This document shows, piece after piece, positions 877 through 17,428 of a stretch of DNA of 17,580 nt; position 1 is the stretch's first letter, and the number at the start of each line of letters is the position of its first letter. The notes under the pieces were generated by a model. It was not told the origin of the DNA. It made no database searches and was given only the letters and a program-made list of their open reading frames with translations. Origin of the DNA: Thermotogota bacterium (lineage in GTDB: Bacteria > Bipolaricaulota > Bipolaricaulia > UBA7950 > UBA9294); the NCBI GenBank assembly GCA_039679545.1, contig JBDKUT010000007.1, positions 1 to 17,580 of the forward strand. Direction: 5' to 3'. The position numbers and the translations under genes are program-made.

Positions 877-1577
877 CCGCGGACGCCGCCTGCGGCGACG
901 AGCGCGCCGATAACGGTCCACGCTTGCCGCAGCTCATCGATCGACAGAGCCGGGCGGTTTTCCCAGGCGGGGTCGACGAGGCGCTTCTCCGACGGAACGC
1001 GGAACGGTTGGAGCATGTATCGGCGTGCTCCGCGGATCCACTTCGAAATCTCGACGAGGTCCCCCTCGCCGAGGCCGGGGGCCACCGTCGTTCGAAACTC
1101 GTAGTCGACGCCGCTCTCGCGAATGGCTCGCATCGACGCCTCGATCGCCCCGACGTCAATGTTGACTCCGGCGTACTCCGTGTAGCGGGCGGGCGGCGCC
1201 TTGACGTCCATCGCGACGTAGTCGACGAGATCTCTCGCGAAGAGCGCCGACAAGACCTCCGGCCGCGACCCGTTGGTGTCGAGCTTCGTCCGCAGCCCGG
1301 CCTCGTGGACGGCGGCAAGGAACGAGCCGAGGTCCGGCTGGAGCGTCGGCTCGCCGCCCGAAACCACAACCCCATCGAGGAACCCGTTTCGCTCACGCAG
1401 CTTCGCCAGAATCGCTTCCGCGGCGAGCGTCGGCCCCTGCGGCGCGAGCTCCGGCAAGACGAGCTCGTGGTTGTGGCAGAACGGGCAGCGAAGGTTGCAG
1501 CCGACGACGAACACCAGTGCCGACATCCTTCCAGGGTCGTCGGACAAGGACAGCGGACTGAATGCCCCCACGCGCAC
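873..1577 (-). CDS. nrdG: Anaerobic ribonucleoside-triphosphate reductase activating protein (radical SAM)
   Basis: GCNLRCPFCHN (CxxxCxxC), SGGEPTLQ, KLDTNGS, DYVAMDVKAP, YEFRTT. GTG start after GAGGT. Lies directly downstream of nrdD. Confidence 0.95.
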   Translation of the reverse strand: MRVGAFSPLSLSDDPGRMSALVFVVGCNLRCPFCHNHELVLPELAPQGPTLAAEAILAKLRERNGFLDGVVVSGGEPTLQPDLGSFLAAVHEAGLRTKLDTNGSRPEVLSALFARDLVDYVAMDVKAPPARYTEYAGVNIDVGAIEASMRAIRESGVDYEFRTTVAPGLGEGDLVEISKWIRGARRYMLQPFRVPSEKRLVDPAWENRPALSIDELRQAWTVIGALVAAGGVRG

Positions 1578-1589
1578 GGCGACCTCGCA

Positions 1590-3692
1590 CTACGCGGACC
1601 GAATTCCCGTCGTCACGAATGTCTTGCGGTCGGCGAATTCGGCCCGCTTCCCGTCGTTCCACTGCTCGACCGGGCGGAGGTACCCGACGATCCGGGAGTA
1701 GACCTCGGCCGGCGATCCACACGTCGGGCACGCCCGGTGCTCCCCGGCGATGTACCCGTGCTCGGGGCAGATCGAAAACGTCGGCGTCAGCGTGTAGTAC
1801 GGAAGGCGAAACGATTCGGCGATCTTCCGAACCAGGCGTCGCGTCGCGTCGGAGTTGGGAAGACGTTCGCCAAGGAAGCCGTGGAACACCGTCCCCCCGG
1901 TGTACTTCGCCTGGAGCGGGTCCTGGATTCGCAAGGCCTCGTACAGGTCGTCGGTGAACCCGACCGGTAGCTGCGTCGAATTCGTGTAGTACGGGGTCTT
2001 CCCGCCGTGCACCTCGAGGTTGTAGATCCGAAGGTCCGGGAACCGGTCGAGGTCCTTCTTCGCCAAGCGGTAGCTCGCACCCTCCGCCGGCGTGGCCTCG
2101 AGGTTGTAGATCTCACCGGTCTCTTCTTGGTAGGAGCCGAGCTTATCCCGCATCCAGTCGAGGACGCGGATCGCGAACATCTGCCCCGCCGGTTCAGCCA
2201 GCGAGCAGTCCATGAGGTTCAGGAGCGCCTCGTTCATGCCGAGGATGCCGATTGTGGAGAAGTGATTCCGCCAGTATCCGCCCTCCGCTTCCTTGATGCG
2301 CCGCAGGTAGAAGCGCGAGTACGGGTAGAGTCCCTGGTCCGTGAGCTGCTCGAGCGTCTTGCGCTTGATCTCGAGCGCCTTCCGGGATAGATCCATCAGA
2401 GCGCCGAGCCGACGGAAGAAGTCATCCTCGTCCGCGGCGAGATACCCAAGGCGCGGCAGGTTCAGCGTGACGACCCCGATCGAGCCGGTGAGCGGATGCG
2501 CGCCGAAGAGACCGCCCCCGCGGCTTCTGAGCTCGCGGTTGTCGATCCGCAGCCGGCAGCACATGCTGCGAGCATCCTCGGGGCGCATGTCGCTCCCGAT
2601 GAAGTTCGAGAAGTACGGGATCCCGTACTTCGCCGTCATCTCCCAGACCGGCTCGAGGACCGGGTTCTCCCAGTCGAAGTCCTCGGTGATGTTGTAGGTC
2701 GGAATCGGGAAGGTAAACGGGCGGCCCTGCGAGTCCCCCTCCATCATGACCTCGGCGAAGGCGCGATTGAACAAGTCCATCTCCGGCTGGTAGTCGCCGT
2801 AGCACGTCTTTCCGAGCGCGCCATTGAGGACGACGGGTTCTCCCGCCATGAACCGCGGCACCTTGAGGTCGAGGGTGATGTTCGTGAACGGTGTCTGGAA
2901 GCCGACGCGCGTCGGGACGTTCATGTTGTACACGAATTCCTGGATGTTCTGCCGCACCTCTTCGTAGGACAGCCCGTCGGCGCGGATGAACGGGGCGAGG
3001 TACGTATCGACGCTCGAGAACGCCTGGGCGCCCGCCGACTCGCCCTGCAGCGTGTACATGAAGTTGACGATCTGGAGCAGGGCGACACGGAAGTGCTTCG
3101 CCGGGCGGGACTCAATCTTGCCGCGCACGCCACGGAACCCGCGGAGGAGGAGGTCGCGGAGGTCCCACCCTACGCAGTAGGCGCCGAGGGTCCCCAGGTC
3201 GTGGACGTGCACGTCGCCGCTCTCGTGGGCCGTGCGGATCTGGACCGGGTAGATCTTGTGGAGCCAATACTGCGAGATGATCTTGTCCGTAATGTGGGTG
3301 TTCAGGCCTTGAAGAGAGAAGGTCATGTTGCTGTTCTCACGGACCCGCCAGTCGCGGTCGTTCAGGTAGTCCTCCACGAGGGGCATCTCGTCGAGCAGGC
3401 CGCGCATCGCGCGAAGATCTTCGTGCTGCTTGCGATAGAGAATGTACGCCTTGGCGGTACGGGCGAGGCCGCGGTCGATCAGCGTCTCCTCAACGGCGTC
3501 CTGGATCTCTTCGACGGTCGGCGGCTCGCCGACGAAGCGCTGTTCGAGGGTGCGTGTGACGCGCTCGGCCACGCCTTGGGCGAGGTATTCGTCTCCCTCT
3601 CCCACTTCTCGCATGGCCTTCCAAACCGCGGTTGTGATCTTCGTTTGGTTGAAGGAAACGACGCGGCCATCGCGCTTGACGATGCGATCCAT
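1590..3692 (-). CDS. nrdD: Class III (anaerobic) ribonucleoside-triphosphate reductase with N-terminal ATP-cone
   Basis: ATP-cone (IVKRDGRVVSF...VEEIQDAVE), SMCCRL finger loop, CPEH...CPTC metal site, glycyl-radical motif YSRIVGYLRP. SD GAGGGGG. Confidence 0.97.
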   Translation of the reverse strand: MDRIVKRDGRVVSFNQTKITTAVWKAMREVGEGDEYLAQGVAERVTRTLEQRFVGEPPTVEEIQDAVEETLIDRGLARTAKAYILYRKQHEDLRAMRGLLDEMPLVEDYLNDRDWRVRENSNMTFSLQGLNTHITDKIISQYWLHKIYPVQIRTAHESGDVHVHDLGTLGAYCVGWDLRDLLLRGFRGVRGKIESRPAKHFRVALLQIVNFMYTLQGESAGAQAFSSVDTYLAPFIRADGLSYEEVRQNIQEFVYNMNVPTRVGFQTPFTNITLDLKVPRFMAGEPVVLNGALGKTCYGDYQPEMDLFNRAFAEVMMEGDSQGRPFTFPIPTYNITEDFDWENPVLEPVWEMTAKYGIPYFSNFIGSDMRPEDARSMCCRLRIDNRELRSRGGGLFGAHPLTGSIGVVTLNLPRLGYLAADEDDFFRRLGALMDLSRKALEIKRKTLEQLTDQGLYPYSRFYLRRIKEAEGGYWRNHFSTIGILGMNEALLNLMDCSLAEPAGQMFAIRVLDWMRDKLGSYQEETGEIYNLEATPAEGASYRLAKKDLDRFPDLRIYNLEVHGGKTPYYTNSTQLPVGFTDDLYEALRIQDPLQAKYTGGTVFHGFLGERLPNSDATRRLVRKIAESFRLPYYTLTPTFSICPEHGYIAGEHRACPTCGSPAEVYSRIVGYLRPVEQWNDGKRAEFADRKTFVTTGIRSA

Positions 3693-14154: not shown

Positions 14155-14637
14155 ATGGACCTAAAGCTCGTAGAGATCGAGAACCCCGACAGCCTGAACC
14201 TGATCCTCGGCCAGTCGCACTTCATCAAGACCGTCGAGGACGTCCACGAAGCCCTCGTCGGCGCCGTGCCTGGGATTCAGTTCGGGCTCGCGTTCTGTGA
14301 AGCCTCCGGCGACTGCCTCGTCCGCCACTCCGGCACCGAGCCCAAGCTCGAACAGCTCGCGATCAAGAACGCACAGACCATCGGCGCCGGTCACTCGTTC
14401 ATCGTATTCCTCGGCAACGCCTTCCCGATCAACGTCCTCCAAGCCATCCAGCGCGTCCCCGAGGTCTGCCAGATCTTCTGTGCTACTTCGAACGCCGTCC
14501 AGGTCATCGTCACCGAGACCGAGCAAGGCCGCGGCATCCTTGGCGTCATCGACGGATCGACTCCCAAGGGCATCGAGGACGACAAGGGCATCGCCTGGCG
14601 CAAAGGCTTCCTGCGGAAGATTGGGTACAAGGGGTAA
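14155..14637 (+). CDS. Adenosine-specific kinase family protein (DUF355-like)
   Basis: [78 protein letters not shown]. Confidence 0.88.
   Translation: MDLKLVEIENPDSLNLILGQSHFIKTVEDVHEALVGAVPGIQFGLAFCEASGDCLVRHSGTEPKLEQLAIKNAQTIGAGHSFIVFLGNAFPINVLQAIQRVPEVCQIFCATSNAVQVIVTETEQGRGILGVIDGSTPKGIEDDKGIAWRKGFLRKIGYKG
14458..14637 (+). repeat. Left copy of a 180-bp direct repeat (3' end of the kinase-family gene)
   Basis: Aligns without gaps to 16503-16682. 156/180 identical by hand count. Confidence 0.95.
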
Positions 14638-14645
14638 TGTGAGCA

Positions 14646-14696
14646 GGCCGCAAGTGACACAGCTCGTCAGGCAGCGGGACTTGCGGCCAGGCTTTT
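14646..14696 (+). terminator. Hairpin downstream of the rib-hisS-kinase operon
   Basis: GGCCGCAAGT-N23-ACTTGCGGCC, a perfect 10-bp stem, followed by AGGCTTTT. Confidence 0.45.
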
Positions 14697-14723
14697 GTCT
14701 GCAACTCCCCGATGATGTAATAT
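14695..14723 (+). promoter_or_regulatory. Putative promoter for small ORF A
   Basis: TTGTCT-N17-TAATAT, overlapping an extended -10-like TGATGTAAT. Confidence 0.5.
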
Positions 14724-14768: not shown

Positions 14769-14885
14769 ATGACGAACGCTCTATTGAGGAAGCAACCATG
14801 CGACCGGGCAAGGTCAGAAGCCGCGCAGGCTGTATTAACAAGGATTGCTGGCCCGAGAGATGGTGATGGCCCTGGGCATCCGTAG
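14769..14885 (+). CDS. Small peptide A, 38 aa: MTNALLRKQPCDRARSEAAQAVLTRIAGPRDGDGPGHP
   Basis: SD GAGGTG 7 nt before the ATG, an upstream promoter, a downstream hairpin, and similarity to peptide C. Below the ORF track's length cutoff. Confidence 0.65.
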   Translation: MTNALLRKQPCDRARSEAAQAVLTRIAGPRDGDGPGHP

Positions 14886-14936: not shown

Positions 14937-15851
14937 TTACCACTGTGGCGCGACTCGCCGCCGCACGGTGTCAGCCAACCTACTTGCGGACAAGAAGAGG
15001 AGCAGGTTCACCCTTCGCCAACGACTTCGAATAGGCAGGCACCTGACTCGGTAGGAGTATGTGCCTTCCGCAGGCCCGAGGATGGTCCAGCAGACACCTC
15101 GCAAGCCCTGGCCGAGGTCCTCGATCTCTACCGTTCCTTGGCGTCTGTGGATAGGTCCCCGCCTCATCTCAAGCCTCTCTGCTGGAACACCTCGCGGCGG
15201 AATGAGGACAATCCTTAGTTCGTCCGCCAGGTCTCGTAGGTGGTAAGAGCAGCTCTTGTCGAGCCCTCGAGCCCGCAAGTCGCTCCAGAGCCCTCGAACC
15301 TTTGCCGAGACTAAGACGCTTCTCTTCTCGGACTCGCGAATGGATGGTAGGAACCAGGCACAGACTTTGATCCTGCCATTGGCCAAGGCGTCTTCGATAG
15401 GCAAGAGAAGGACCTCTGTACCGCTGTCGGATGAGGCAGTTAGCCCCAATTCATCGAAGGAGAGCGGTTTGGGACCGTGTACCCCAGTAGCGCCGAAGTC
15501 CAGTTCCTTGCCCAGGATCGGCTTTTCGCCGACTGCGACGGAAAAATCGTAGTGTCGCTCCTGCCAGTCGCTTCGTGCCGTTAGCCCAATGTGGTAGATG
15601 ACCGAGATTCGTCGCGCGTGGACCCTCGGGGGAATGAACTCCTCAATTGCTGTCCGGAAGTCCTCAATCAGCTCGTTTTGGCGCTCGCGGCAACGAACGA
15701 GTAGCCGGTGCTTACGCCACAGGTGCAACAGGGCGATGCCGAGTATTGCCGCCAGGCCTACGGTGACTCCACCCAGCGGATCTCCTCCAACAAGGTATAC
15801 GATCACCCCGGGGACAAAGGCTAACGCCCACTCGACCAACGAACGTACCAT
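14937..15851 (-). CDS. Hypothetical membrane-anchored protein D (two N-terminal TM segments plus a beta-rich soluble domain)
   Basis: 304-aa ORF in less GC-rich DNA. Hydrophobic segments WALAFVPGVIVYLVGG and GVTVGLAAILGIALLHLW, then basic RKHR, a helical linker and alternating beta-strand patterns. No family recognised. No clear SD. Confidence 0.8.
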   Translation of the reverse strand: MVRSLVEWALAFVPGVIVYLVGGDPLGGVTVGLAAILGIALLHLWRKHRLLVRCRERQNELIEDFRTAIEEFIPPRVHARRISVIYHIGLTARSDWQERHYDFSVAVGEKPILGKELDFGATGVHGPKPLSFDELGLTASSDSGTEVLLLPIEDALANGRIKVCAWFLPSIRESEKRSVLVSAKVRGLWSDLRARGLDKSCSYHLRDLADELRIVLIPPRGVPAERLEMRRGPIHRRQGTVEIEDLGQGLRGVCWTILGPAEGTYSYRVRCLPIRSRWRRVNLLLFLSASRLADTVRRRVAPQW

Positions 15852-15884: not shown

Positions 15885-15992
15885 CTAGGCTCGTGTCGGC
15901 CCGTCACCGTCTTCCGGCCCCATCTTCTGCACTGACTTCCCCTCGCGGCGGGTAGTCGCGGCACACCTCACTGGTTGCCTGATCAGTGACAT
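15885..15992 (-). CDS. Small peptide C, 35 aa: MSLIRQPVRCAATTRREGKSVQKMGPEDGDGPTRA
   Basis: ATG overlaps the peptide B stop (TGATG), with GGTGG just upstream. Similar to peptide A. Corresponds to the 3' part of track ORF 15885..16157. Confidence 0.6.
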   Translation of the reverse strand: MSLIRQPVRCAATTRREGKSVQKMGPEDGDGPTRA

Positions 15993-16147
15993 CAGATACC
16001 ACCGTCCCGTGGCCCGTCGCCGAGGAGCAAACACCTGACCTCGAAGCCGGCGTGCGGACCACCCCGCACGGCTCCGCCGACCGCTGAAATCCCGAGGCTT
16101 CCGATAACTAGACAGCAGATCACGAACACACAAACCCGATCCCGCAT
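15992..16147 (-). CDS. Small putatively exported peptide B, 51 aa: MRDRVCVFVICCLVIGSLGISAVGGAVRGGPHAGFEVRCLLLGDGPRDGGI
   Basis: GGAGGG about 10 nt upstream. Charged n-region plus hydrophobic h-region like a signal peptide. C-terminal GDGPRDGG. Corresponds to the 3' part of track ORF 15992..16201. Confidence 0.65.
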   Translation of the reverse strand: MRDRVCVFVICCLVIGSLGISAVGGAVRGGPHAGFEVRCLLLGDGPRDGGI

Positions 16148-16343
16148 CTCCGGCCATCCCTCCGCCTGCTTCTTGTCAACTGACACTTCTCTCCGACCCA
16201 CGACTGCACGGAAAAGGCAGGGACCCGCCTTGGAGATCGTGGTTCCTAAGCACGATGCTCCCGCGGTTCCCAGGGTGTCTAGTAGAAGGTCAGGATGACA
16301 GTCCGCAACTCAGACAGATGATGTGCGGTCTCCATGACTTACC

Positions 16344-16371
16344 ACTATACATGTATGTGGTTCGAAGTCAA
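16344..16371 (-). promoter_or_regulatory. Near-consensus sigma70 promoter facing B-C-D, embedded in an inverted repeat
   Basis: Minus strand TTGACT (16371-16366), 16-nt spacer, TATAGT (16349-16344). Inverted repeat spans 16335-16370. Confidence 0.65.
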
Positions 16372-16502
16372 GAGATTGAATCGACAGGAGATAGTGTCTT
16401 CCGTGCGGCGTGGTTGCCGTCAACTCGGGATGCAGCACCGGACAAAGTGAGGAGGCTCCGGAAGGCGTGAAACGCGGCTGCCAACAGGCGATGTGACGAA
16501 GC

Positions 16503-16682
16503 CCCGAGGTCTGCTGCATCTTCTGTGCCACCTCGAACCCCGTAGAGGTCGTCGTCGCCGAGACCAAGCAAGGCCGCGGCATCCTCGGCGTGATCGACGG
16601 CGCGCCGCCGAAAGGCATCGAGGACGACAAGGGCATCGCTTGGCGCAAAGGCTTCCCGCGCAAGATCGGGTACAAGGGGTAG
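16503..16682 (+). pseudogene. Orphan 3' fragment (59 codons) of the adenosine-specific kinase family gene; right copy of the direct repeat
   Basis: Translates [59 protein letters not shown]. An in-frame TGA at 16494-16496 lies upstream and there is no 5' part. Confidence 0.93.
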
Positions 16683-16876
16683 GGTCCGCCGGTCGCAGAA
16701 CTGCGCCCGCTGCGTGGCAAACTACAGGCTACGAGCTGCCCAGTTCATTTCGGGCAGAAGCACTTGTGGAAACATCAGACTACGCGTCACGCGTTGCGTG
16801 TACGCTCTCGCGAGCGGCCAAACAGGGTTGGCCGATACCGGGCCAAGGGAGGAGGACGGCAAAACCGTAACGTTAG

Positions 16877-17428
16877 CACCTCCTCGAACTGGCCCGGTAT
16901 GTGGTGCTGAACCCCGTGCGGGCGCGAGCTGTGCGGAGCGTCCGCGACTGGCCGTGGTCAAGCTACCGCGCAACAGCAGGGATGGCGGAAGTACCCAAGT
17001 TCCTCACGACTGACTGGATTCTTTCGCAGTTCCATCGGACCCCACGCCGCGCAATCGAGCTCTACCACGAGTTCGTAAAGCAGGGCCGCGGCGTCAACGC
17101 CTGGACCGAGCTGCGGGGCGGCATCCTGCTCGGTACCGACGAGTTCGTCGACAAGCTGAAGCCGCTCCTCTCAGACTACGAGGCGCTGAAAGAGATCCCA
17201 CGCCGCGAGCGTCTTGCTGCCCGACCGAGCCTTGACGAGCTGTTCTCCAAGGTGCGTGACAAGAAGGCACGCAACAGGCAGATCCACGCGGCCGTCCGCG
17301 TTCACGAGTACACGCTTCAGGCGGTCGCCGACTTCCTTGGCCTTCACTACTCGACCATCAGCGTCATCGCCAAGCGCGTCGCCGCCGACCGGAGAACACA
17401 AAAAGTGAAGATCTCGTACATTGCGTAG
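16877..17428 (+). pseudogene. 5'-truncated Y1 (HUH) / REP-associated tyrosine transposase-like gene with C-terminal HTH
   Basis: HLLELARYVVLNPVRA...DWPWSSYRATAG...LG.DEFV...YTLQAVADFLGLHYSTIS matches the C-terminal half of RAYT-like Y1 transposases. In-frame TAG at 16874-16876. The N-terminal HUH part is absent. Confidence 0.82.

Follow-up and report, generated by a model that had tools for sequence, protein, structure and literature searches.

Peptide signals that are read inside the cell are well characterized in two groups, Bacillota with their TPR receptors and cyanobacteria with HetR (PMC12756182, PMC10075063, PMC9765709). In filamentous cyanobacteria, the exported PatX and the leaderless PatS carry one short motif for the cytoplasmic receptor HetR (PMC12756182). 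The RRNPP systems are defined, in PMC10075063, by a small propeptide (10-100 aa) secreted through Sec and by an adjacent gene for a receptor of 250-500 aa with TPR; their pathway, as described in PMC9765709, leads from propeptide processing through re-import by Opp to receptor binding. Leaderless communication peptides (LCP) are described in PMC10518010 as very short, devoid of a signal sequence and, for RopB, encoded beside the receptor gene.

Here we describe a cassette of ~1.9 kb in the window (the whole 17,580-nucleotide stretch of DNA analyzed, equal to contig C7 of genome G000), whose host belongs to the Bipolaricaulota. Members of the 90% clusters around the host's housekeeping proteins bear the names Ca. 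Bipolaricaulis or Bipolaricaulota. Its genes are arranged B→C→R←A: B encodes a small precursor, C and A encode leaderless peptides, and R encodes a putative receptor. B, C and A all fall below routine annotation size. The cassette resembles PatX/PatS/HetN-HetR in pairing putatively exported (B) with leaderless (C/A) carriers of one motif, a likeness that holds at five loci and is judged by sequence only. The motifs differ: RGSGR or HRGTGR in PatS, PatX and HetN, an acidic GPxD(G) here, with RG(S/T)GR absent from the cassette's peptides. HetR is a transcription factor, whereas R is a membrane-anchored beta-sandwich putative receptor, and all genes of the present system are gathered in one 2-kb mobile cassette in a Bipolaricaulota host.

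The RRNPP(A) systems (Rap-Phr, PlcR-PapR, NprR-NprX, AimR-AimP) are similar in that B is a small precursor with a Sec-signal-like start and a conserved C-terminus, B (51 aa) and R (304 aa) lie within the propeptide and receptor size ranges, the genes are neighbors and, as in Rap systems, several peptide genes accompany one receptor. In contrast to those systems, the cassette has no TPR domain and no DNA-binding or phosphatase output, its R is membrane-anchored, it contains leaderless paralogues with the same core, and it lies outside Bacillota. The first-pass annotation had likened B to Phr, AimP and PapR-type precursors; with a neighbor that lacks TPR and is modeled as a beta-sandwich, membership in that group does not hold. 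C and A are as short (12-41 aa for peptides of their type) and as signal-less as the LCP of RopB. RopB, however, belongs to the Rgg-type regulators of Firmicutes, a family to which R shows no match, and in the cassette a signal-peptide form accompanies the leaderless peptides.

A literature search, confined largely to papers open without subscription, found none on this system. What the cassette suggests is a third receptor domain with a motif of its own, unrelated to the other two and present in uncultured anaerobes; a single 2-kb unit holds both putatively exported and leaderless carriers of that motif. Judged from its sequence features, it is a credible candidate, from uncultured bacteria, for a new pair of peptide signal and receptor.

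B is a small peptide gene with a signal-like start

B (15992-16147, minus strand) comprises 51 codons, translated as MRDRVCVFVICCLVIGSLGISAVGGAVRGGPHAGFEVRCLLLGDGPRDGGI. A Sec-type signal-like region (approximately residues 1-24) is followed by a spacer of 15-20 residues that contains Cys and by the C-terminal core GPRDG(GI), in agreement with the first-pass annotation, which had described MRDR, a hydrophobic stretch, a short spacer and a polar tail. Across all six frames of the host genome (4.7 million codons), the pattern GDGP.DG turns up once, in B.

Signal-peptide-like starts were scored with a rule of our own, in place of SignalP: an uncharged 11-mer with a mean Kyte-Doolittle (KD) value of at least 2.4 near the start, a non-negative n-region and a small-residue site at -3/-1. 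B scored 3.63 under this rule, which 37 of 9,936 ORFs of 40-90 aa in the genome background passed. Shine-Dalgarno pairing favors the ATG at 16147 among three candidate starts, with -10.0 kcal/mol at 8 nt compared with -5.8 kcal/mol for the ATG at 16157 and +0.6 kcal/mol for a GTG at 16201. The B frame was also the best of nine frame pairs when compared with the homologue at locus L002 (z 3.4; 5 of 500 shuffles equally high); the frame opened at 16157 has no signal region and no match to L002. DNA contigs from runs X1 and X2, which may be the source sample, span B with zero differences, and one RNA run (n=1) touches, within the window, the kinase gene only. B is a real, conserved and unannotated peptide gene.

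A sigma-70-like promoter (16344-16371, minus strand; TTGACT-16-TATAGT, 10/12) lies ~190 nt upstream of B and is a consensus match only. Its proposed use as a reporter for added peptide finds no support, because the cassette encodes no DNA-binding domain. Unusual structure was sought in the leader (16140-16340) and was not found (z -0.74). An 18-codon ORF, METAHHLSELRTVILTFY (16279-16335, minus strand), starts ~9 nt behind the -10 box of this promoter without a ribosome site, and is a possible leaderless uORF.

C and A carry the same core without a leader

C, the only gene in the 140 nt between B and R, begins where B ends: the stop TGA of B (15994-15992) and the ATG of C (15992-15990) have one base in common in the string TGATG. 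This overlap was correctly noted before, and had been taken as translational coupling. Gaps of 4, 34, 54 and 71 nt separate B from C in the four other loci that have both; given these gaps and C's own ribosome site, coupling is at most local and not a feature of the system. C (15885-15992, minus strand) ends KMGPEDGDGPTRA, with GPEDGDGPTRA at its C-terminus, and is 35 aa long from ATG 15992 or 15 aa from GTG 15932. The latter may serve as an alternative start at this locus (pairing of -8.0 kcal/mol vs -7.3 kcal/mol).

A (14769-14885, plus strand) encodes a 38-aa leaderless peptide ending IAGPRDGDGPGHP, with GPRDGDGPGHP at its C-terminus, and is convergent on R. In the same 4.7 million codons, the pattern GP.DGDGP is present twice, in A and in C, both times three residues ahead of the stop. 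A promoter-like site precedes A (14695-14723, plus strand; TTGTCT-17-TAATAT); upstream of the A gene of L002 stands TTGTCA-17-TAATAT, its last 11 bases identical to the window site. Convergent counterparts of A were found in L002 and L004. None of the eight A/C genes has an uncharged hydrophobic stretch, in contrast to all five B genes (KD 2.8-3.6). The order of motif residues in B had been called a permutation of that in A; the permutation is literally present but is not meaningful, the B core GPRDG being A's first five motif residues in the same order. Candidate ligand peptides of the cassette are GPRDGGI, LLLGDGPRDGGI, GPEDGDGPTRA and GPRDGDGPGHP.

The Gly-Pro-x-Asp core recurs beside homologues of R

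Eight other R loci with DNA were compared, all selected via R alone: L002 (a metagenome contig); L004, L005 and L006 (from a search of the phylum); and L011, L017, L018 and L023, which are the profile-confirmed 4 of 20 matches to a DNA pattern for the R motif W-x-G-x-W..LR..G-x-D. L007, a weak match to the membrane part only, was left out before counting, and the pattern-only matches L009 and L025 were placed among 16 control loci. Within 600 nt of R, four of the eight loci have a B-type gene, defined by a signal-peptide-like start and a Gly-Pro-x-Asp core near the stop, and in all four a C-type leaderless gene with a GPxD core follows B. Any GPxD peptide was found at five of the eight, representing three other genomes and one metagenome contig; none was found within 600 nt at L006, L017 or L023, among which are the patatin fusion and the two loci from actinobacteria.

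L002 preserves the full arrangement: a B gene, cut at the contig end, that ends QCVVLGPRDGG, a C gene ending KGPRDGDGPVAKTE, R, and a convergent A gene with GPKDGDGP. L011 and L018 belong to one genome (G184) and carry GPDD and GPQDGDG cassettes, respectively. At L018, B ends HLCGPQDGDGPTGL and is followed by C (MEVKVTQGPQDGDGSKDGGH) and R; at L011, B (ending HTCGGPDDQGI) and C (MYIHASGPDDGT) are intact beside an R with in-frame stops. Both cassettes are followed by related ATPase genes, whose HerA-like matches are weak. At L005, B (ending KAFAGPDDGT) and C (MSENFQNGPDDSTGG) are both convergent on R; for this B to include the signal, translation must begin at an ATT (ribosome site -12.6 kcal/mol), since the first ATG yields a 37-aa form that lacks it. 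L004 has no B-type gene and a single leaderless convergent A-type peptide, MLIRTVYVVLLNGPDDGE, 2 nt after an HU-like gene, so a peptide can be paired with R without an exported form.

Three further features of these loci were recorded. The gene directly upstream of R at L004 (879-1328) encodes a 149-aa membrane protein with several helices that belongs to no Pfam family. L006 contains two tandem, highly diverged R-like genes (1474-3290) behind a transposase-like tail, and a convergent ORF (~1250-1477) with a hydrophobic start and no GPxD core. At L017, a short convergent ORF (2212-2285, plus strand) with GPNPSDG, ending GPNPSDGWAPDTGPHN, has a stop that overlaps that of R and is possibly an actinobacterial variant of the peptide.

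B-type homologues are 65-82 aa long. Including the window, all five B-type genes have a signal-peptide-like N-terminus by our rule (L002 being truncated and L005 read from its ATT start), and in the four complete ones the n-region is basic and small-residue -3/-1 sites come right after the hydrophobic core. Ribosome sites are strong for B and C in L005, L011 and L018. The spacer from signal to core is poorly conserved: a Cys stands 1-6 residues ahead of the core in four of five B genes, and apart from it a cleavage motif common to the B genes was not found. In the core, G45, P46 and D48 of B are invariant in 5/5 B-type genes, and across loci the cores read GP[RKEQD]D. The mature peptide proposed earlier, GDGPRDGGI, is not supported, since conservation is confined to GP-x-D(G) and L002, the closest homologue, lacks the GD in front of it. 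The first-pass annotation had named three outcomes that would speak against its reading of B: lack of a signal peptide, an unconserved C-terminus and use of the 16157 frame. Each was looked at; what we found was a signal-like start and an invariant core in every B-type gene, and a frame and ribosome site that favor B.

The statistical case rests on the window-derived patterns GP.DG and GP.D, GP[RKEQD]D having been shaped after the homologues were known. In 9,104 bp of flanks of the eight R loci, GP.DG occurred seven times within 12 residues of a stop, against a shuffle mean of 0.10 (maximum 1 in 200); near-stop GP.DG was absent from 78,894 bp of the 16 control loci. GP.D was observed nine times in the R-locus flanks (1.01 expected), and the scrambled motifs PG.D and D.PG two and zero times. 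A looser core pattern, with matches in 172 of 184 genomes, was too permissive and was dropped. The codons for G, P and D in 13 cores are constant at positions 1-2 but take every allowed base at position 3, which argues for selection on the peptide; on this ground a reading of the core as a DNA or RNA motif was rejected. Together, the comparisons show that B, C and A are conserved genes tied to R, the B-type genes joining a signal-peptide-like start to the core.

GP.DGDGP also occurs away from R, with four matches in three other genomes of the phylum and at 35 viral loci, none with an R match; the match in G177 lies inside a shadow frame of another gene. Two viral contigs (L072 and L086, match at 1501-1523) have in common a 35-aa acidic ORF with GPQDGDGP 12 residues before its stop and no R match nearby.

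R encodes a membrane-anchored beta-sandwich

R (14937-15851, minus strand) encodes a 304-aa putative receptor with two N-terminal transmembrane helices, a long helix, a beta-sandwich (~76-273) and a C-terminal helix. No Pfam or NCBIfam family matched it, the PADLOC library (2023) gave 0 matches at E 0.01, and no TPR family was found among 37 R sequences. R itself has no enzymatic or DNA-binding output domain. Representatives number 44 at E ≤ 0.001 among 1.84 billion, and atlas look-alikes were unnamed clusters only. A single-protein search returned 0 of 40 relatives; the A3 profile matched none of 401 genomes in the phylum of G187, and among 401 Acidimicrobiia-class genomes, and likewise among 18 of G184's phylum, it matched only its seed. 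No relatives of R were found in viral contigs, plasmids or phages.

The structure modeled from 37 sequences reached a pLDDT of 92.9 and a pTM of 0.84 (pLDDT 38 from two sequences only). Its beta-sandwich resembles the oligosaccharyltransferase subunit 6s7o_E, ribophorin I (VIA Z 13.2, rmsd 4.2, 202 aligned); M1 aminopeptidases resemble it in their N-terminal domain (Z 9-11; best Z 11.0, rmsd 3.7, 169 aligned). At 7-12% identity, these likenesses are no evidence of function. The M1 match spans target residues ~12-255 only, the N-terminal beta-domain, outside the catalytic domain, which has no counterpart in R.

A loop of 4 residues and a net charge of +5 behind helix 2 predict that the beta-sandwich is cytoplasmic. 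By rule, two transmembrane helices were called in 17 of the 37 R rows, one in 13 and none in 7. Elsewhere the R domain stands behind an XRE-type HTH (P0043), a class III cyclase (P0042) or a patatin (two proteins, P0050 and L023, the latter at 1169-2803). Because HTH, patatin and cyclase are cytoplasmic domains, these fusions suggest that the R domain is probably a modular cytoplasmic sensor. They do not show that the domain binds GPxD peptides, since L006, L017 and L023, the patatin fusion included, have no GPxD peptide. The R beta-sandwich is an unnamed modular sensor domain that deserves its own family definition. Residues D95 and W189 are invariant and R193 and D198 near-invariant; R99, K115, R177 and R193 are basic in 70-95% of the 37 rows, which suits an acidic ligand. 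In the R tree, the three long-form GPxDGDG loci form one supported clade (95/94), apart from the GPDD loci. With six loci and labels shared by kin, this match of clade and core type is suggestive of co-evolution of peptide and R, not proof of it.

A model for peptide-R signaling and its rivals

The reading we prefer, at about even confidence, makes R the receptor of a small family of neighboring peptides with the core Gly-Pro-x-Asp(-Gly), among which B is the exported one. B would leave through Sec and lose its signal, and the remaining 25-55 residues would be trimmed to a short acidic C-terminal peptide. That peptide would re-enter the same or a neighboring cell, probably through an oligopeptide permease, and bind the cytoplasmic beta-sandwich of R. 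Fifteen matches to oligopeptide-binding proteins (SBP_bac_5) make peptide import possible in the host, and such permeases are near-universal (11 of 14 control genomes). C and A, not being exported, would provide the producing cell itself with the same core, as a baseline or self signal, with A made from its own conserved promoter-like site (TTGTC-17-TAATAT in the window and L002). Since R has no enzymatic or DNA-binding output, peptide binding would act through its membrane hairpin, on oligomer state or on a partner.

Broader, and correspondingly more tentative, is the proposal that the cassette exemplifies an undescribed signaling class: a modular non-TPR beta-sandwich receptor for Gly-Pro-x-Asp peptides, with exported and leaderless sources in one mobile cassette and variant cores as specificity types, wired per lineage to a membrane hairpin, transcription factor, phospholipase or nucleotide cyclase. 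The ligand model can be tested without culturing the host, given candidates of 5-12 residues, a confident soluble-domain model and natural HTH, patatin and cyclase fusions as read-outs.

The main rival makes the cassette a toxin-antidote or defense module. R would be a two-helix membrane-damaging effector whose sensor domain is restrained by cytoplasmic C and A; B would carry the antidote out of the cell, to protect kin or to report cell density, and loss or dilution of the peptides, for example when a phage shuts off translation, would free R. It differs from the ligand model mainly in output, both needing peptide binding to R. The toxin-like cargo that G005 carries at the same chromosomal site (described below) accords with such a module, as do an R domain fused to a patatin part that matches PADLOC phospholipase effector models (L023; E 2.6e-61), a membrane hairpin as R's sole output, redundant peptide genes (three in the window), a broken R beside intact B and C at L011, and a patchy distribution. 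Yet no PADLOC model matches R itself, R genes are intact without a GPxD peptide at L006 and L017, an antitoxin has no need of B's conserved export signal, and the HTH and cyclase fusions point to general signaling; we therefore regard the module as unlikely, although it deserves to be kept in view. We are more skeptical that B stays unreleased, as an uncleaved anchor that forms a small membrane subunit pairing with the helices of R or displays the core at the surface of the cell. Its hydrophobic stretch, both long and strong (KD 3.63), would fit this, as would a spacer whose beta-strand-like and Cys-containing segments set it apart from the plain linkers in short pheromones; no common cleavage motif was found. 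Against this, the four complete B genes combine a basic n-region with small-residue -3/-1 sites, and an N-in anchor would put the core outside, opposite R's predicted cytoplasmic domain, when the core of C and A is cytoplasmic.

Still less probable is a minimal RiPP-like cluster in which the peptides are substrates and the R domain modifies or cleaves the GPxD core. The conserved D95, W189, R193 and D198, several precursor-like genes with one common core, and the fold likeness to oligosaccharyltransferase and M1 peptidase domains could be read in this way, but the M1 match stops short of the catalytic domain, no locus read contains a modifying enzyme or exporter, and the HTH, patatin and cyclase fusions suit a sensor better. 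Largely refuted, and barely meriting credence, is the view that B is an ORF open by chance, a shadow of the 16157 frame or the decayed remnant of some longer secreted protein. B has no family match, and GC-rich DNA is rich in GP and DG strings, as the viral and other matches of GP.DGDGP away from R illustrate; nevertheless, signal and core share one open frame at 5/5 loci of very different base composition, variation is synonymous, and both the frame test and the ribosome site favor B.

The cassette occupies a recurrent cargo site

The cassette is mobile, rare and patchy: R was found in 5 of 184 genomes of the phylum, counting the host (G000) and one weak match. Its left border is an adenosine-specific kinase family gene (PF04008; 14155-14637, plus strand), whose last 196 nt (14457-14652) recur as a diverged, 85% identical duplicate at the right border (16502-16697, plus strand). 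In G005, of the same genus, a similar duplicate of the kinase 3' end (L070, 237-1767) surrounds different cargo, a PemK/MazF-like pair followed by a DUF2971 gene whose product matches PADLOC PDC-S31; directly behind the kinase gene of G001 there is neither a duplicate nor such cargo. The duplicated 3' end around different cargo in two genomes indicates a cargo site for small accessory modules.

Beyond the right border lies a transposase-like gene (16901-17428), open in its 3' half only and presumably "RAYT-like". It has weak HTH matches only in Pfam, and a 70% identical stretch occurs on contig C150. The insertion site at the kinase gene thus presents, in two genomes of the genus, as a 3'-end duplication next to a transposase-like gene.
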